The notes: generated by a model from the sequence alone, not told the origin. A stretch of 64,000 nt of DNA from Patiria miniata (GCF_015706575.1 NW_024037060.1:1073983-1137982), one strand, 5' to 3'; shown: positions 29,137 through 58,280, counted from the stretch's first letter. Numbers and translations are program-made.

Positions 29137-30561
29137 TATTGTCCTCTTCTAGGGCTAATTTCATATTTGAGTATTCTAACTTGGACTTGATTGAATATTC
29201 AAATATATGAAATGCACCGATCAAAATTAACTGGCACTTGAATTATCATGTTTTTAATTCATAATTTTCTCTCATTAACTAAGTTATGAACTTGCCAATG
29301 AGACGTTGCACACAAATCTTCTGACAGTATTAAGGTTAAGTTTGAATTGGAGTGACCTGCTCCCAAGTTTTGACAGTATTTCTTCTATATCCCCCTGGAC
29401 TGTGTAGAGTACTAAGTGTAATACAGCATTATTACATTTAAAAAGTACAGTTTTCTCCCCACAGTAAGTGGGTATGTGGAAGACTGCCGTACTAATTTTG
29501 AAACTCATAATTTGCTTGTATTCCCACATCTTCTAAACCAAGAAGTATTTAGGGCATTATTTCATTTAATTGTTTATTTTGATAATTATTCACCGAAGTA
29601 AAATTAATTTTGTTTTAAAATCAACTAACTTGTAATTAATAGAATGTTTTGAAGCGTTAGGGTTGTAATAGAAAAACGGTGCAAGACATGACTTTTGATG
29701 GAATGCTTGCCTCAGAGAGACATTGCTTGAACACCTGTGCAAGTTTGTTGTATTGTTATCTCACCTGCTCATGGAAACCACTGAATATATAATGAGTAAA
29801 TAACAAAGATATTTAAACTTACAAGATATTTGCACAACGAAAGTGTTATTAATATTAACATGTAACATGTATCACTCAGGTCACCTGTAAAGTGAATATA
29901 ATAATTACATAATGTACATAGGTCTACATATTAATATTGCAGGGAATATTAACTTTTAATGAGGCTTCATCAATGCTATTGCATTTCCAATAATATTAAG
30001 AGGTGTTAAAGGCAGTGCTTATGTATCGAAGGTGGTTCATTCTTAAATTTTACACATTTATACAAACTTTTTATAATTTTTTTTCCAGCAATGTACATTG
30101 ATAAAGATGATACTCGTTTTTCATGTATATAATGCTTGAAATTATAAATGCTGGCATTTCTACCATGACTGTAAATTTAATTGGTATTTTTTTAAATTTA
30201 AAACAAATCGTCGACTTTTATCCAATTTCTTGTCACTCCAATCATGATTGCTGCCTTATGCCATTGAATTTAAACTAAACTTTTTTTCTAGACGGTTTGA
30301 CGCAAGTCTTGTAAATACGGGTAAAATGTTGGTTGTTTTTGTTAGAAGATTATTTGAGTGATGATTAATTGTATTTCCTTTTGTAGTACGTATATGTTGC
30401 AATTATGGTGAAACTTCAAACCGATTGTTGCACTAAAAACATTTGTTATAAAAATATCAATAGAAACCAAGTCTTTCACATACTGCCATGCTTTATTTAA
30501 ATGTCAGTTATTTTAAGGATAGTCATAAATTAACATGAAATCATATGGTGGGCAGAAAAGT

Positions 30562-31803
30562 ACGAAAGCCCATTAGCGCCACTGCAAGTATATATGTTGC
30601 GGAATATTTAATTCGTTATTATGGATTATTAATTCGTTATTACGGATTACTAATTCGTTATAACGGATTATTTAATTCGTTATTACGGATTATTAATTCG
30701 TTATTACGGATTATTAATTCGTTATTACGGATTATTAATTCGTTATTACGGATTATTAATTCGTTATAACGGATTATTTAATTCGTTATTACCGATTATT
30801 AATTCGTTATTACGGATTATTAATTCGTTATTACGGATTATTAATTCGTTATAACGGATTATTAATTCGTTATTACGGATTATTTAATTCGTTATTACGG
30901 ATTACTAATTCGTTATAACGGATTATTTAATTCGTTATTACGGATTATTAATTCGTTATTACGGATTATTAATTCGTTATGGATTATTAATTCGTTATAA
31001 CGGATTATTAATTCGTTATTACGGATTATTTAATTCGTTATTACGGATTACTAATTCGTTATAACGGATTATTTAATTCGTTATTACGGATTACTAATTC
31101 GTTATAACGGATTATTTAATTCGTTATTACGGATTATTAATTCGTTATTATGGATTACTAATTCGTTATTACGGATTATTTAATTCGTTATTACGGATTA
31201 TTAATTCGTTATTACGGATTATTAATTCGTTATTACGAATTACTCATACGTTCCGAGTCATTACTCGGCAAGTATGGCACAGGGTGCAAACGTTGTATGC
31301 AAAGATAGCGCCGCCTAGCGGCGCTATATACACAGGCCCCTGGTCACGTGCTCTCCAAGTGTGAGAACATCAGACCTAATTCGTAATAACGAATTAATAA
31401 TCCGTAATAACGAATTAAATAATCCGTAATAACGAATTAGTAATCCGTAATAACGAATAAGTAATCCGTAATAACGAATTAATAATCCGTAATAACAAAT
31501 TAGTAATCCGTAATAACGAATTAATAATCCGTAATAACGAATTAATAATCCGTAATAACGAATTAAATAATCGGTTATAACGAATTAATAATCCGTAATA
31601 ACCAATTAGTAATCCGTAATAACGAATTAATAATCCGTAATAACGAATTAATCATCCGTAATAACGAATTAATAATCCGTAATAAAGAATTAAATAATCC
31701 GTTATAACGAATTAATAATCCGTAATAACGAATTAATAATCCGTAATAACGAATTACATAATCTGTAACATATATACTTGCAGTGGCGCTAATGGGCTTT
31801 CGT
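30562..31803. mobile_element. Foldback-type element: long TIRs built from 23/24-bp tandem repeats around a 125-bp unique core; 8-bp TSD AGAAAAGT
   Basis: Termini ACGAAAGCCCATTAGCGCCACTGCAAGTATATATGTT / AACATATATACTTGCAGTGGCGCTAATGGGCTTTCGT. Arrays of TTATTAATTCGTTATTACGGAT-like units run 30602-31250 and, inverted, 31376-31770. TSD at 30554-30561 and 31804-31811. Uninterrupted empty sites ggtgggcagaaaagtgat occur at 11360, 41461 and 51548. Confidence 0.8.
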
Positions 31804-33074
31804 AGAAAAGTGATTGTACTTTATTATTGTGTCAATAACTTGACATAAACCTATCGGTGTTTTTTTGTAATTGCCAGAGAAAAAAAAGGGAAATATCAAG
31901 ATTCCATTCAAGTGTGTGGACTAACAGCCATTTTTGAATCGTAGTAATAATTTAATATTTATAACATTTTTAAAACACCTTACAGTGCCTTGATACACAT
32001 TTTTCTTAATTTGTGCTTGGGAATTAAATCGATAAATCTCGAATAACAACTTCAACAGTAGCTGCATTTTCAACGCACTGTCTTAAGATTAAGAATCTTA
32101 CGATTAACCACAACGGTACTAATTAAATACTAATTAAAGTTTGCATTGTTTGCAATCAACACATAGTTTGAACGTACTAAATTCTGGGGGAAAATGATGT
32201 ATTCAATGTCTGCGTAAATATATTTTCACAAATCTTGAAAACATATTGATATCAATTAAAATTTAGGTTGCACAACACGGTTCTTGGAAGATTTAGTAAT
32301 TGTAAACACATTATAGTTACTCTCTTTAACAACTTCGATTTTGTTTTTTTTATAATAGAATTCATGTTTTCAATTAAAATAAAACCAACATTTTCTATTT
32401 TTCGACGACTGCAACCCTCCGATTTGTTTTTCTTTTTGACTTTGGGTAGCGCTCTTCTTAACGTACACAAAAAAAAATCCGGATGAATTATTGTCAATCG
32501 CAAAAAATCGAAATTTGTAAAGTAATTATTCCATAACACTACACGTCAACTTGACATATTTTCGTTTGATGTCTCATTTAAAAGTAAATAACTTTTGCAT
32601 TTCCAGGAAAAAAAGCTAGCTCGTGCTAGTCTTTTTTACCTGCCAGCATCCGGGGTGCGTTACGTGTCCGGATGGTCCGGGTATAGGCGCGTGGGACTTG
32701 ACTAAAGGCTAATCGAGTGCTTGCGTGTAGTACTATACTACTATACTCGAGTTGTACAACACTGCTAATTTTTGGCAACCACTTGACATTGAGCAATCTC
32801 ACCCATTTAATAATGGGATGGTCCAACTAGCACGGTGAACTAAAATAAACTGCTAAATGTGTTTTGTTACCAAAGCTTCGGCAAATACAATATCTTATTA
32901 TTACAATTACATGCAATTACTTGTGAAGGACGGTGGAATCGCAGGGCGGCCTCGGACTGGTTTTGTACACACGGTAGGCTTACGTACTGCTGTTTGGCAT
33001 GTTTAGATGATGTGCAGTGTACGAATCTCGTGATAATCCGGCCATTCAACTTTTTTCAAGGCGATTGTGTACAA

Positions 33075-34442: not shown

Positions 34443-34713
34443 ATGGCAGAAACCGACGCCCTGTTGTCGTACGTAGCACCCAAGCATTCACACCCAAGCT
34501 TGACCAAATACGATACTGTCAATGGGGACCGTGACATCCTTAGTGCGGAGACCCCATCTCCTCTGACGAACAGCTTGAAGAATGAGAGGGGAAAGCCCAT
34601 GACAGGAGAACACGTGGTGTACAAAGCAAGGTGGTTCATTCTGGCCGTCTTCTCGCTACTTTGTATGTTGCAAGCAGCAGCGTCGAACGCATGGGGTCCC
34701 ATCGCAGACACAG
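34443..34713 (+). CDS. SLC49-family (DIRC2-like) paralog P3, exon 1/11
   Basis: aaccATGG; 90 aa + phase-1 G; MAETDALLSYVAPKHSHPSLTKYDTVNGDRDILSAE...RWFILAVFSLLCMLQAAASNAWGPIADT; GT at 34714. Confidence 0.8.
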
Positions 34714-35187
34714 GTTTGTCACACAATTTCACCAGTTTGTGCTGACAGGAGAGTTGTAACCAAGTCATTTTTGTCCTAGTCCAGTCAAGTCACAAGCCAT
34801 ATATTTTCAAGTCAAGTCTCAAGTCATTTTTTCCCAAGTAAAGTCAAGTCTCAAGTCAAAAAAGTAGCGACTTGAGTCCGACTCGAGTCCGAGTCAGCGA
34901 CTCGAGTTAACAACACTGGCTGACAGCGTTGGCAGAAAATGTCTGATCTAACCCAGTAACCGCAGAATCCTTCGTTACGGGATGTAAACATGTGCATAAT
35001 CCAAAATTCCTCTCTGACCCGTAAAAATAATTTGATTCCTTTTAATTCTAGGACCTACCTATAGATCTGGAATTATAATTTATATTTTGTACATAATATC
35101 AGATTTTCAATGTACATACTTATAATATAAGCTCCATTGATTGTAATGCATGATTTTAAACCTAATTCTTCATCATCTGATTTCTAG

Positions 35188-35298
35188 CCAAGGTTGTGTT
35201 GGACTGGACGGATGGTGACATAGCCCTGTTGGCCAACTGGGGTCCCATTACATTCGTAATCACCAGCTTTTTCTTTTCCTATCTACTTCTCATCAAAG
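35188..35298 (+). CDS. P3 exon 2/11
   Basis: 111 nt; AKVVLDWTDGDIALLANWGPITFVITSFFFSYLLLIK. Confidence 0.8.
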
Positions 35299-35745
35299 GT
35301 AAGAAATTGTCACACAATGATCTCATGGTTTTCATGTTGTGTTTTGTGAAATTTGTTTTTTTTTGAGAGCTACCTTGTGGGGTACTTGCACAAATGGAAC
35401 AATGGTGCCGTATTTGTGTCTGCCGGTTGTTGTCTAACGGTGCCCAGAAGGGAAATTCTAAAGAAGAAGAATAAGAGTAGAACAATGCAAGACCCATAAG
35501 CCTCATCTATAAGGTTGGGTGTAGGTGCAGGGGAGGGGGGGGGGTAGTTTGGGGCAGTATAAGGTGTTAACATCCCTCCCTCTTAAAACAGACAAAATTT
35601 GAATGGAAAAAAAAACGCACTTCCCTTTGAAAATAATTTTTAGAACACATGCTTTAAAGACATTAAATAGTGTTAACATGTTTTAAACTCACGGAAATAG
35701 TGCAAAATAATTCATCAGCTATCTGTTTCTTTTCGTGTCCTGCAG

Positions 35746-35836
35746 GTTTCAGGTTTTTCGTATTATGCAGTTCCTTGATCTTCCTATTGGGAGTCGCTAT
35801 ACGGTGCATTCCTGTCGGTGTAGAAAACGTGAAGTG
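35746..35836 (+). CDS. P3 exon 3/11
   Basis: 91 nt; GFRFFVLCSSLIFLLGVAIRCIPVGVENVKW. Confidence 0.8.
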
Positions 35837-36048
35837 GTAAGAAAAATTACGAAGGCACAGATTGATTAATTTTCTATTTTGTCTTATTAGCTTACTTAGG
35901 TGGGACTTGAACCCAGGACCTCCTGGACTAGTGCAGATGTCTCAACATGACTACGTTGTAGTACCATATTCAAACCATGGAATATTCATTGTCACATTGT
36001 AAATTGTCGTCTTCGATGATTAAATGTCTGTTTTGTGTTTTATCCAAG

Positions 36049-36249
36049 GACAATGAACGCTGGCCACGTTTTAATTGGCATAGCTGGTCCCGTTATGATG
36101 TCAGCACCAACTGAATTATCAGCGGTCTGGTTCCCGCCTCACCAACGGACTACGTCCACGGCCATTTCTATGACCTCAGCATTTTTTGGCATGTCCATGT
36201 CGTTTCTGGTGGGGCCATTAGTGGTCACAAGTCTTCCGCAAAATGCAAG
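36049..36249 (+). CDS. P3 exon 4/11
   Basis: 201 nt; homolog of P1 exon 4. Confidence 0.8.
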
Positions 36250-36509
36250 GTAGTAACCTTACCTATTTGGTTAGTTTCACGTTTGTTCTTGTTTTAGAGC
36301 AACTGATCTTTGGGAAGAGAACTAATTGAAATCAATTGTCTCTTTGCGACAATGGAAAAGAAGGTTTACTTTTGGTAAATTGAAGAATTATGAATTGTCA
36401 AAATGTTGTTCTTAAAAATATCGCTAAGCTGTTACCAAATAATGTTTTTCTTGAATTAACAAAAGAAAAAAAAAAATATTGCATTGTAACAGTGAATATT
36501 TGGTTTCAG

Positions 36510-36583
36510 TTCACATGCAGAATCCATAGACCCAAAGGAGAAAGCACTGTACTTCAATGAGATAATGAAGTTAATGTATATAG
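36510..36583 (+). CDS. P3 exon 5/11
   Basis: 74 nt; SSHAESIDPKEKALYFNEIMKLMYI. Confidence 0.75.
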
Positions 36584-37137
36584 GTATGTACAAACTATTG
36601 TCTTTCCAAAAAGTTACAGGGCTTAATGTTTTGGTCGTAGTAAAACTTCAGTTAAGGCAAACAGAATGTTGCCTGTAACAAAGGTCTAACTGTATTCCAC
36701 GTCACTCTAGTCAATAAGCAGTCTCCAACAATTTAGTCTTTTAAATATTCGTTGTCAGATTTGATTCCAAAAAGGGAGGCTTCGGGATTTGTTTTTAATT
36801 TTATTGAAGTTGAAAAAAAAAAACCATAAAAGACTTCCCTGAAAAGTCTTTTGACTGTTGAACCCACTGCTGTTCCGGATTTAAACCAGCCGGGCAACCT
36901 AACCAACCAAGGTGGTCGAGTGATTAAACATGATTGCGCTTTTAACCAAAATGTTGTTGGCTCAAGTCCCACCTGAACAAGCTTGAGGCTTTTATTTTCT
37001 GACTAGTTGCCAGACAGCGTTTAGTGTATATAAATTGCTGCGAGTGCCTATTAAATTACATTGGGGAAGGGTGAAACCTAATATAAACAATAGATATTAC
37101 ACACATTTGTATTATTTGTTTTCATTTGATGTTTCAG

Positions 37138-37267
37138 AATGTGGAGCTGTGGCCGTCGTGGTCATCGCGGCTCTATTGTACTTCCCTGAGAAGCCACCAA
37201 CCTCACCCAGCTTATCTGCCACCAAACCTCGGGAAAGCTTCAAAGATGGAGCCCTGAAGATGATCAA
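37138..37267 (+). CDS. P3 exon 6/11
   Basis: 130 nt; homolog of P1 exon 6. Confidence 0.8.
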
Positions 37268-37437
37268 GTTAGTCTTTAGACAACTGTCCAAAAATTGGAA
37301 GAAGAAAACTTAATTTTCAATTTTTTAAGAAACATGCTTTAATTCAATCAAGTGTCAACACGTATTAATCATAATCCTTAACTCTGAAACAGCTAAAGAT
37401 TAAAAGAGTCCCATTTTTGTTGAATATTTGGTTGAAG

Positions 37438-37549
37438 GAGCACCCATTTTTGGATTCCTGCGGCAGCCTACAGCATATCATCTGGAGTTTACGGTGGCTG
37501 GACCACGCAAATGGACACAATTTTCAAGACTACTCTGAATATAGGACAG
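37438..37549 (+). CDS. P3 exon 7/11
   Basis: 112 nt; KSTHFWIPAAAYSISSGVYGGWTTQMDTIFKTTLNIGQ. Confidence 0.7.
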
Positions 37550-37719
37550 GTAACAATCACAATATTCAAAATTATTTATAATTGCTGAAAGTTTTGTTTA
37601 GTACAAGTGCGGCACTGTCCAATATGCTATGCTAGTCTCTGTTGAGTTGTGCTTAGCTGTGTTGTGTGATTTAGCCATGTTAGCAGATGAATTTCTAATA
37701 TTTGGGTCATTTTTTTCAG

Positions 37720-37787
37720 GACACTGTTGGTTGGATTGGATTCATCTCCAATATTGCCGGGATGCTGGGAGGCTTGATAGTTGCAAG
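37720..37787 (+). CDS. P3 exon 8/11
   Basis: 68 nt; DTVGWIGFISNIAGMLGGLIVA. Confidence 0.8.
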
Positions 37788-38164
37788 GTGAGTGGTGCAA
37801 CAGTGTCACAAAAGTTTCACTTCAGTAGAAAAAATTGCTCCTCGTTGAGCTTTGGTCCCAATGGAGGATCAGGAGGGCGCTGGGGGGGGGGGGGGGCTTA
37901 GTCCCCTTAAACTCTCCAGTAAGGTGAAACAGTCTGGATCTTAAGCTCAGACATTTTGTAGTTTACATGTATGTGCCTGGGTTGGTCTACCTTTCCACTC
38001 CCCATTTTATAAAATGTACCAGTCCATTGACCTGTGTGGTTATATTAGGTGAGTGATAAGGCATACAGGATCACCAGGTCAGTGCCACGCTCACGTAGCT
38101 GGTCACACAGGGTGAAAGTTTTCCATTGAAAAAATCATGCATTCAGATGCTGATCTGGATCACT

Positions 38165-38400
38165 TCCAAATTATTTGGGGGGGGGGGCAAAAAAATGTTG
38201 GTCCCCAAAAAGTGGGTCCAAGAATATAACTCTGTGGGTTTTGGGGACCGCTTAAGGGACCGCCAAATTTTTTTTTTGATTCTAGTGGTGTGATCTGTGG
38301 TGCGATCTGAGGCAATTTTCTGACCACTTTGACCCAATTTTTTTGAGGAAAAGATGGTGGTGTACGCAGTGCCTGCCTTAATGACCCCCCCCCCGTACCA
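38165..38400. repeat. Internal fragment of MITE family A without TIRs (P3 intron 8)
   Basis: Matches the MITE-A core (GTGGGTCCAAGAATATAACT...GCGATCTGAGGCAATTTTCTGACCACTTTGACCC) but lacks both termini. Confidence 0.5.
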
Positions 38401-38539
38401 AGGACCACCCCTAAATGAGTGACGGCAGGAGTATGCCATCGAATAGTAAGACAATTCTTATTTGGCAATGCGTTTGACAAATTGCAGTCTTCACTCTTGT
38501 TAAATATTTTATCTCTCCTTGTTTTTGTGACTTCACCAG

Positions 38540-38658
38540 ACTTGTAGACATCCTAGGCGGTAGGATGAAGGCAGTATTGATTTCACTCACCATGGCAGCC
38601 TTCGTTAGCTGTGTATGGTATGTCCTACTCTCAATGAAGTATATCTCATATAGTTTAG
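38540..38658 (+). CDS. P3 exon 9/11
   Basis: 119 nt; RLVDILGGRMKAVLISLTMAAFVSCVWYVLLSMKYISYSL. Confidence 0.8.
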
Positions 38659-39032
38659 GTGAGTAACATGAGAAAGTGTCGAAAAAAATGTAATGCGCAC
38701 ATTTATTTTTATGTGTGTTGTTTGGGCTTCAACTTCAAGTTGAGATTATCTGAAAGATTGTGAAATTGAAGCAGATACGGGCAAATTTCTAACAGGGGTG
38801 CAGAGTTTCGAAAATTTTCAGGTTGTTTTATTTATCTTAAAAAGCTTCATAAGAAAATGTGAACACCCCTAATAAAAAAAAAATGAAATATGACAGTCAC
38901 CCAGGTTTTACAAATGTTTTAAGCTTATACCAGACAAACATTGCAAGTGTTTTCAATGTTTATTTTTGGGAATTGTTTATTGGACATTCACCTATATTTG
39001 ATTCTGTGATATGTGTTTCTCTTTGGTTACAG

Positions 39033-39215
39033 TGAGCGTCTACATTGCATGTATCTTCTTTGGACTTTTCATCAATGCCTCCTTCCCCATATACTTTGAG
39101 ATCACGGTCGAGGGCATGTATCCTGTCTCAGAAGGCAACATAACAATGGTGATGACATTCGTGACCAATGTGGTTTCTGTGATATTCCTGTTGCCGCCGA
39201 TGATTCCAAATCTAA
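39033..39215 (+). CDS. P3 exon 10/11
   Basis: 183 nt; ...EITVEGMYPVSEGNITMVMTFVTNVVSVIFLLPPMIPNL. Confidence 0.75.
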
Positions 39216-39392
39216 GTAAGTTCAAAATTCTGAAATAACTGAGGCTGCTACCACCGTCACAATGGACTCAGTGTGCAAACAAGAGAGGGCGCTTTTTCTA
39301 CCACTTTTGAGAGCCATGTGGACGGGAGACATCATGTGCCCGTTCTGGTTCATGCACCTGCAGCATGAAGGAGGCATGACTAGTTTTATTTT

Positions 39393-50007: not shown

Positions 50008-50132
50008 GTGTGATTTGGATGAACTGGCTCCTTCTAGGTTCCGTCTTCGTGTGCTTGCCTCTCCTCATGATGTATAAGGAGCATTATAATCGTCTGGATG
50101 AAGATATGACGGAAAGTATCCAGAGAGGATAA
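50008..50132 (+). CDS. P4 exon 11/11 (TAA 50130-50132)
   Basis: 125 nt; tail ...MMYKEHYNRLDEDMTESIQRG*, the same as P3. Confidence 0.55.
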
Positions 50133-54562: not shown

Positions 54563-54681
54563 GTAAGTTGAACGAGATGTAGGACATGGACAGCAGGACA
54601 CACCAGACACAACTACCGACCGAGCCAATCATCATCAAAATAAGAATCAACTTCATGCGACCTCCGAGGTAATCAACTAAC
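54563..54681 (-). CDS. P5 exon 9/11
   Basis: 119 nt; RLVDYLGGRMKLILILMMIGSVGSCVWCVLLSMSYISFNL. Confidence 0.7.
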
Positions 54682-54920
54682 CTGCCAATGGAACAAAGAA
54701 GATTTCAAAAATAGACGCATGGGTGATTTTTATTGTGAATTTGTACCAGATTTTTATTATGTAGTATAATTTTTCCCACCAATGATATGAAATATAGTAG
54801 CAGCCATAGTTTAAATAATGCAGTTTGTCTCAATTTTTGGAAATAATGAAGATATCTTGGACACGTTAAACGAATGTGTAACATTCAAAGGGCTCTTAAT
54901 ACCAATCTAGCAGCTCATAC

Positions 54921-56204
54921 TATAGTCAGGTGGCATATGGTCGGAATCGTGACCGACTGGTCCAAAGCACCAAACTTGGCAGATAGATTCTTATAGCCCT
55001 AGAGAAGATATTTAGAAGGGGTGACACCTGAAATTCTTTTGGGAAGGGTGCCTAATTTGCATAAATCGTTAATCCCTGCCGTGTAATATATTTATTCCCA
55101 TATTTGGGTATATTTTTATTTTTTATTTTTTTTGAAAAGTGTATTTTGGTGATTCTACTTGCATATTCTTACTTCAATAACATTTTGTAAAACATATAAG
55201 TGACTGAATAATTAGGAGGACATAGTAAAGAACCACAATTGCTACTATTTTACCCTAAAGTTACGCGCATTTACCTTTTCCTCAGATATCATCAACTAGT
55301 CTCGCCAAACGTTGGTATTGATGAGCTTCAAATTAACAAAGTTACTTACTGGCATAGTTACCCTGACAAAAATAAATGGGAAATCAAGTGAAAATTGATA
55401 ACATCTTGATGCTTAGCCCAAAAGACCAAAAAAGGGGAGAAAATGTGGTGTCCGTAAATTGGGCTAGTACGAGAAGGGTATAACGTGGGAACTTAAACAA
55501 GTTCAACAAAATCCCCCTTAAGAAGAGATTATTGTTGTTTACAATAATTTTGTCTACGCCAAAACGTTTTCTTAACAATAATTAGGGGAATTTTCTTGAA
55601 CTTGTTCCAGTGTTCCATATGTTAGGCAACCATTCACCTACTTGTTAGCCTAATTTATGGACACCTCGTTTTTCCCCAGTTTTTGTTTTCTGGGCTTAAT
55701 ATCACAATGTTATCATAGTTCACATGATTTTGCATAAGGTTTTAATAGGGTAGCTGTACCAGTAAGCTACTTGGTGAATTTGAAGTTCATCAATGCTAAT
55801 GTTTGGCAAGACTAATTGATGATATCTGGAGACAAGGTAAATGCGCGCAATTTTAGGTCATAATAGTAGCCATTTTGGATCGTTACTATGTCCTCATAAT
55901 TATTCAGTCACTTATATGCTTTGGAAAATGTTATTTAAGTAAAGATATGTAAGTAGAATCCCCAAAATACACTTTTCAAAAAAAATAAAAAAATGGAAAT
56001 ATACCCAAATATGGGAATAAATATATTACACGTCAGGGATTAACGATTTATGCAAATTAGGCACCCTTCCCAAAAGAATTTCAGGTGTCACCCCTTCTAA
56101 ATATCTTCTCTAGGTCTATAAGAATATATCTGCCAAGTTTGGTGCTTTGGACCAGTCGGTCACGATCTTGACGAAAATTAGATCTAAGCCACCTGACTAC
56201 TAGG
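54921..56204. mobile_element. 1.28-kb near-perfect palindrome (two arms of about 640 bp at about 90% identity, centred on AAAACGTTTT near 55565) in P5 intron 8
   Basis: 54921-55560 is the reverse complement of 55570-56204 (for example tagtcaggtggc...gaccgactggtccaaagcaccaaacttggcagata versus tatctgccaagtttggtgctttggaccagtcggtc...gccacctgactacta). Confidence 0.75.
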
Positions 56205-56209
56205 CCTAC

Positions 56210-56277
56210 CTTGCGAAGGCCAATCCACCAGCAACCGCCGCCAGGTTTCCGATGAAGCCGATCCATCCAACCGTGTC
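56210..56277 (-). CDS. P5 exon 8/11
   Basis: 68 nt; DTVGWIGFIGNLAAVAGGLAFA. Confidence 0.7.
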
Positions 56278-57712: not shown

Positions 57713-57897
57713 CTATGTTATTTGAAAGTCAAATAAAATATAATCATTAGAAATTTTATTGTGAAATTGCACGAAACAAAATGTTGTCGACTATAATTAT
57801 ATTTCCTATAACATCAGAATACTTCTGCATGGGCTTCAAGATCCTAAACTTAACTTTAAAAATGGCCTTAAATTTGGCATGTGAATTATACAAAACC

Positions 57898-58054
57898 AAC
57901 CCGACCCAGCCCAACCCAACCCAGCCCAGCCCAGCCCAGCCCAGCCCAGCCCAGCCCAGCCCAGCCCAGCCCAGCCCAGCCCAGCCCAGCCCAGCCCAGC
58001 CCAGCCCAGCCCAGCCCAGCCCAGCCCAGCCCAGCCCAGCCCAGCCCAGCCCAA
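57898..58054. repeat. (CCCAG)n microsatellite, about 31 units, in P5 intron 4
   Basis: cccagcccaacccaacccag(cccag)n. Confidence 0.9.
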
Positions 58055-58079
58055 ACCCAACCAATGTGGTAAGTCTCAC

Positions 58080-58280
58080 GTGACATTCTTGGGCACATCG
58101 CTCACGATGTTCGGACCAATCAGGAAAGAGCAAGCCAGGCCGAAGTAGCCTGCCGTGGAGGCTATAGCCGTAGATGTAGTGCGCTGATGAGGTGGAAACC
58201 AGACTGCCGAGAGCTGCGTCGGTGCCGCTTGGAGAATGGGTGCTGACACGCCCACAAAGACCTGACCAATGTTGGCCGTC
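58080..58280 (-). CDS. P5 exon 4/11
   Basis: 201 nt; [67 protein letters not shown]; donor AC|gtgaga. Confidence 0.7.

Follow-up and report, generated by a model that had tools for sequence, protein, structure and literature searches.

Intron 8 of a minus-strand SLC49A4/DIRC2-like (MFS transporter) gene of Patiria miniata contains a 1277-bp palindromic element. It is probably one copy, intact or decayed to a relic, of a class II DNA transposon of the non-autonomous, palindromic (foldback-like, long-TIR) type, and its insertion point would lie 10 nt into the intron from the 5' splice site. Its long terminal inverted repeats (TIRs), the short direct repeat on its flanks, the absence of coding capacity and its lineage-specific occurrence all point to a non-autonomous class II element of this palindromic, foldback-like kind. 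An earlier note on this DNA had proposed a long-TIR or foldback transposon with no unique core, and the architecture described below fits that proposal. At its length the element exceeds the usual size of MITEs, below ~800 bp, and we therefore prefer to call it a long-TIR or palindromic non-autonomous element and do not class it as a strict MITE. The palindrome is real, and features of this kind are ordinary in genomes. All positions refer to the window, by which we mean the whole 64-kb stretch of DNA that was analysed.

The host gene is intact. Its conceptual protein matches starfish SLC49A4/DIRC2-like transporters, and a gene model whose junctions were refined against the orthologue of Acanthaster planci comprises 11 exons, uses GT-AG splice sites throughout and encodes 506 amino acids. 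The translation agrees at every residue with XP_038058242.1 ('solute carrier family 49 member 4-like [Patiria miniata]'), which maps to an 8.3-Mb scaffold, and the gene is thus annotated with exactly the same splicing. The best match obtained at first was an A. planci protein at 79%, and the notion that the gene was unannotated was ruled out by this exact identity, the P. miniata protein having been grouped within the A. planci cluster. The palindrome had been placed in intron 8, and on the annotated exon structure this placement is correct. The element starts at position +11 of the intron, just beyond the 5' splice-site consensus, and on the transcribed strand the intron reads GTAGGCC-TAG-element-TAG-TATGAG.... 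The sequence on either side of it is unique and runs collinearly into exons 8 and 9. Subtracting the element and one CTA leaves an intron of 248 nt, and the element accounts for its being about six times that length.

The inverted repeat is far beyond chance. An ungapped repeat search recovered three collinear inverted blocks: 54946-55138/55974-56166 (193 nt, 95%), 55119-55442/55669-55992 (324 nt, 82%) and 55491-55518/55584-55611 (28 nt, 86%). Gapped local alignment merged these into two arms, 54946-55518 and 55584-56166, that agree at 496 positions and differ by 76 mismatches and 12 gap positions (85%), and global alignment of the full halves matched 537 of 662 columns (81%), the remainder being 78 mismatches and 47 gap columns. 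Consistent with these alignments, blastn of the element region against the whole window returned a reverse-strand self-match of 1243 nt at 82.9% identity (E = 0). The interval originally given for the palindrome, 54921-56204, was essentially right; perfect 12-nt terminal inverted repeats set its true ends at 54923 and 56199. The arms are ~575 nt each, and the whole element is arm except for ~65 nt at its centre. The complementarity of about 90% once attributed to them was an overestimate, since we measured 81% over the complete halves and 85% in the best local alignment. Similarly, the description 'near-perfect' suits the outer block of ~200 bp, where the global alignment of the halves gave 96-100% identity, but not the rest of the arms, which carry 15-23% mismatch. 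The arms had also been said to meet at a palindromic centre. A 10-nt palindrome, AAAACGTTTT, does lie at 55561-55570, near the geometric centre of the element (55561), but it sits within a stretch (55519-55583) over which the two arms give no alignment and for which only small local hairpins are predicted. Arm identity reaches its minimum, 62-64% in the same global alignment, beside this centre, the values on its flanks spanning 62-68%. The coordinates of all features are collected in Table 1.

Table 1. Features of the palindromic element and its host intron (window positions)
Feature	Position	Strand	Description
Exon 9 of host gene	54563..54681	-	tblastn and splice model
Intron 8 of SLC49A4-like gene	54682..56209	-	1528 nt; 5' splice site GTAGGC starts at 56209
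Left flanking CTA	54920..54922		candidate 3-bp target-site duplication; alternative, 2-bp TA
Left terminal inverted repeat	54923..54934		TAGTCAGGTGGC, 12 nt, perfect
Left block without counterpart in the other arm	54935..54945		11 nt, between terminal repeat and arm
Left arm, outer near-identical block	54946..55140		2-4% mismatch; longest perfect run 81 bp, 54998-55078
Left arm, inner diverged block	55141..55518		15-23% substitutions, plus indels
Central non-aligning segment	55519..55583		65 nt; local hairpins and AAAACGTTTT
Right arm, inner diverged block	55584..55974		repeat search and alignments
Right arm, outer near-identical block	55975..56166		repeat search and substitution profile
Right unmatched block	56167..56187		21 nt, between arm and terminal repeat
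Right terminal inverted repeat	56188..56199		GCCACCTGACTA, reverse complement of the left 12-mer
Right flanking CTA	56200..56202		candidate target-site duplication
Exon 8 of host gene	56210..56277	-	tblastn and splice model

The ends of the element have the form expected of a transposon. With up to one mismatch allowed, the terminal 12-mer TAGTCAGGTGGC occurs at only two sites in 64 kb, and these are the two ends of the element; the shuffle expectation is 0.16. The trinucleotide CTA found on both flanks is no more than suggestive of a target-site duplication, because a 3-nt match arises by chance about once in 64. Because the junctions read CTA/TAG...CTA/CTAG, the ends can also be read as a 2-bp TA duplication with termini beginning GTCAGG. 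Duplications of 3 bp are the length made by PIF/Harbinger, CACTA or Zator elements, whereas TA would point to Tc1/mariner. The PIF/Harbinger target consensus is TWA, which CTA fits in length but not in sequence, and we know of no superfamily consensus that the element termini match. There is no Mutator-like target duplication of 8-10 bp: the flanks share CTA only, and the 8-mers TCATACTA and CTAGGCCT differ. Before insertion, the empty site would have read ...CATACTAGGCCTAC.... If the element moved in this way, its terminal repeats, TAGTCAGGTGGC..., would have been recognised by a transposase acting in trans, and a short target, either CTA or TA, would have been duplicated on integration.

We next consider coding content and copy number. 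The element has no coding capacity. The longest stop-free stretch is 65 aa, and a concatenate of 13 of the stop-free stretches (>=28 aa), designed to catch spurious gene calls on other copies of the element, had no match at E <= 0.01 when searched against 5.8 billion protein clusters. Blastn with a word size of 9 detected no second copy in the 64-kb window, including the paralogous genes. In metagenome, viral and prokaryotic collections, which hold no starfish genome, a 23-mer common to both arms had 0 matches; a 20-mer common to both arms matched four loci at which similarity ended at 21-23 nt, as expected by chance. Nothing similar to the element is present in the orthologous intron of A. 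planci (437 bp, L001 22698-23134) or elsewhere in 35 kb of A. planci sequence. The two orthologous introns are unalignable throughout, so absence from A. planci defines no empty site. The corresponding introns of four or five paralogues in the window, located by tblastn, are ~450-750 bp long. Tandem repeat analysis of the arms (TRF, minimum score 30) revealed only a T-rich run of ~20 nt in each. Finally, an Rfam search at E <= 1 gave a single match, to a plant miRNA family, whose 21 bits against a gathering score of 117 indicate chance, and no tRNA, 7SL or 5S similarity. The stretch should be masked as a repeat, and its importance beyond annotation is small; should the family turn out to be multi-copy, the starfish repeat catalogue would gain a palindromic long-TIR family.

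Elements built in this way are known from several animals. In how it would act, the intron 8 element is like the palindromic MITEs; in appearance it is like a foldback element. The PAL families of C. elegans in Repbase are palindromic MITEs. A further parallel is provided by the Harbinger-derived palindromic MITEs of Xenopus tropicalis, which, like the intron 8 element, are non-coding, consist almost entirely of two inverted arms, carry a short flanking duplication (a candidate one in our element) and can alone form tight dsRNA inside introns, the Xenopus copies being heavily edited by ADAR (PMC5625713). The comparison is one of structure, and our element is at least 5 times longer than the 221-bp Xenopus example (PMC5625713). 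Drosophila FB, sea-urchin TU and Tetris share with it very long TIRs, which account for most of the element, and a short non-coding middle, TU being likewise from an echinoderm (PMC4079207; TU elements are attributed there to Liebermann et al. 1983). Classical foldback elements are defined by long TIRs, tandem sub-repeats within the TIRs and an 8-10-bp duplication (PMC4079207); the intron 8 element has neither the sub-repeats nor a duplication of that length. As summarized in PMC4079207, most foldback elements are assigned to the Mutator superfamily, with Galileo, of the P superfamily, an exception credited to Marzo et al. Galileo resembles our element in having TIRs of hundreds of bp, in which sub-repeats are not obligatory, and non-autonomous copies that amount to little more than two arms. 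However, the characteristic Galileo termini and the 7-bp duplications that Galileo makes were not seen. Inverted Alu pairs in human introns are a functional analogue rather than a relative: they too are intronic inverted repeats that yield long imperfect dsRNA, but they represent two separate retroposon insertions, whereas the element described here is one unit with its own terminal repeats. Such inverted repeats are the main class of ADAR substrate (PMC5625713), and their stability in DNA depends on spacer and divergence (PMC10164571).

A local origin of the palindrome has to be weighed against transposition. In such a scenario, a template switch or fold-back break repair would have copied ~640 bp of intron 8 in inverted orientation, and the copies would then have decayed. 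Only one copy of the palindrome is known, and the 3-bp identity of its flanks could be due to chance or to microhomology at the junction. In addition, the 248 nt that remain without the element fall short of the A. planci intron and of the paralogous introns, so that an ancestor of ~890 nt containing one arm is not absurd. Nevertheless, perfect 12-nt ends with the same trinucleotide immediately outside are the signature of a transposon and would not be expected of fold-back repair. The arms show no resemblance to the orthologous intron, the paralogues or other sequence in the window, which is a weak objection given that the introns are unalignable. Furthermore, a foldback-type transposon lies 24 kb away (30561-31804), demonstrating that this genome hosts hairpin-type transposons. 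We therefore consider a local inverted duplication unlikely.

Less probable still, two copies of a dispersed repeat of ~640 bp, of the SINE or MITE type, could have inserted head-to-head, or one into another. The 15-20% divergence between the arms over most of their length is typical of members of an older repeat family, and intronic dsRNA in animals arises most often from inverted pairs of repeats (PMC5625713). Against this, the inner ends carry no A-rich tail, microsatellite or separate terminal repeat, and the terminal 12-mer is absent near the centre even with one mismatch allowed. The arms lie only 65 nt apart, neither has a flanking duplication of its own, and the 64 kb hold no further copy. 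The identity of the outer ~200 bp would also need an extra explanation. We rejected a SINE dimer specifically, as tails and any tRNA, 7SL or 5S similarity are lacking. A single transposon copy remains the reading that we favour.

The distribution of differences between the arms provides a further view of the history of the element. From the outside inward, substitutions per successive 100 alignment columns amount to 2, 4, 15, 17, 23 and 16% (Spearman p = 5e-6), and the identity profile drops in a step near 55140/55975, not along a smooth gradient. The outer block of near-identity does not reach the ends of the element: it sits inside the 12-nt terminal repeat and the unmatched blocks of 11 and 21 nt. 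Because the profile is step-like, uniform decay of a once-perfect palindrome does not fit. The likeliest source of the near-identity is a relatively recent arm-to-arm gene-conversion tract of ~200 bp, and we take the step as a small hint of conversion within the element. Alternatively, the original TIR may have been only ~240 bp long, with an inner palindrome that was older and already degenerate when it was inserted. After insertion the arms would have diverged by ~15-20%, while the outer ~200 bp (54946-55140 and its partner) would have stayed, or would have been remade, near-identical. A more consequential interpretation is that the step records conversion that is still ongoing, or selection for ~200 bp of perfect dsRNA (with its 81-bp perfect run) in the pre-mRNA, in which case the element would not be plain decay but, in an invertebrate deuterostome, a source of intronic hairpin RNA or a structural part of its intron; we give this only a slim chance.

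The transcribed strand of the element is predicted to fold into one continuous imperfect hairpin of -750 kcal/mol, in agreement with the hairpin of roughly 600 bp anticipated in the earlier note. Such an RNA should loop out of the intron and keep the spacing of the splice sites close to that of the ancestral intron of 248 nt, which is consistent with an intact and annotated host gene. By analogy with other intronic inverted repeats, it is a plausible substrate of ADAR or Dicer, and its expected fate would be hyper-editing by ADAR, perhaps cleavage by Dicer, and breakdown together with the intron. In Xenopus, ADAR massively edits palindromic Harbinger repeats, and the purple sea urchin is among the species screened for hyper-editing (PMC5625713). 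The locus is a convenient and well-defined candidate for the study of ADAR hyper-editing, or of endogenous siRNAs, at intronic palindromes in echinoderms.

A dedicated function for this hairpin, either as a hairpin-RNA locus that produces endogenous siRNAs or as a splicing regulator that brings the 5' splice site near the branch region, is improbable in our view. The very stable predicted fold with its long perfect run, a stem base only 10 nt from the 5' splice site, and an outer block that is unexpectedly well kept between the arms would all suit such a role. However, transitions and transversions between the arms are equal in number (39:39, a ratio of 1.0), and mismatches due to G.U-compatible transitions are not favoured in RNA from the host strand (16, versus 23 on the opposite strand; p = 0.34). 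The latter gives no sign of selection for RNA pairing, and both results fit neutral decay. About 19% of alignment columns are unpaired or gapped. Moreover, the arms have no similarity elsewhere in the window or to any protein and hence no evident hairpin-RNA target, and absence from the orthologue and the paralogues indicates that the element is not a conserved feature of the gene. Most likely, it is now a neutral passenger of the intron. As for an assembly artefact, missed-adapter or fold-back reads are known to generate palindromes that have next to no spacer, but a chimeric read of this sort in the consensus, which the earlier note had raised as a caution, is contradicted by the patterned substitutions and gaps that hold arm identity to 81-85%, by a structure that is internal and bounded by terminal repeats, by unique flanks whose exons 8 and 9 are not duplicated, stand in the correct order and yield the annotated protein, and by a window free of N bases, and it is scarcely credible.

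Cruciform extrusion begins at the centre of symmetry, and it is here that the arms are least alike. A cruciform and fragile site had been predicted from the palindrome, but the 65-nt non-palindromic centre and the low arm identity beside it make this unlikely. In yeast, lengthening the spacer from 12 to 20 bp lowers recombination induced by inverted repeats ~40-fold, a single mismatch close to the centre already has a marked effect, and instability is wholly lost at 75% homology (PMC10164571). Taken together with the diverged centre, these data make it unlikely that this copy forms a cruciform or is fragile in duplex DNA.

Several other features of the window were observed in the course of this analysis. 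The foldback transposon mentioned above (window 30555-31810) is of textbook form and is unrelated in sequence to the intron 8 element. Its unique terminal inverted domains of 38 nt, TACGAAAGCCCATTAGCGCC..., lie at 30561 and 31804, and its arms are inverted arrays of a 21-bp repeat, CGGATTATTAATTCGTTATTA, with ~30 copies at 30600-31242 and 18.5 copies at 31377-31768, separated by a 134-bp middle domain. In contrast, the arms of the intron 8 element have no such tandem repeats. A 6-bp direct repeat, GAAAAG, flanks both ends of the foldback transposon, and the composition profile has an AT-rich trough over the same stretch.

The window also contains at least four SLC49A4-like paralogues in tandem on the plus strand (~2150-50130), with first exons at ~2150, 23354, 34443 and 44651 and exons that are 90-100% identical to one another. 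The minus-strand paralogue that hosts the element (60287-53178) is older. A P. miniata RefSeq protein, P0005, is 100% identical to one plus-strand paralogue in all exons with a tblastn match (34443-39217), but the only 100% match of its last exon lies past the next paralogue, at 50010-50129, which suggests that P0005 is a read-through or cross-paralogue gene model.

Other repeats were also present. A dispersed repeat forms an inverted pair at 6824-7066/8818-9037, and similar motifs occur near 15.9, 20.9, 58.5 and 59.85 kb. It starts CAGGGGCTGATCC..., contains a G-run, CC and an A-run (GGGGGGGGGCCAAAAAAA) and gives rise to common pseudo-ORF motifs such as 'LRKRWWCTHCLPLLRCHIK...FFLGGGG'; its CAGGG terminus looks hAT-like. 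A further inverted repeat at 673-735/1606-1670 (65 nt, 92%; TGTTGTGCCCATTCTTGAAAATCACGC...), with arms 871 bp apart, may represent the terminal repeats of another non-autonomous element of ~1 kb. Finally, intron 4 of the host gene contains a long tandem repeat at ~57836-58100 that translates as (GLGWA)n or (PAQPS)n in several frames; these translations, our sole view of the repeat, point to a unit of ~15 nt rich in GGCTGGGCTGGG.
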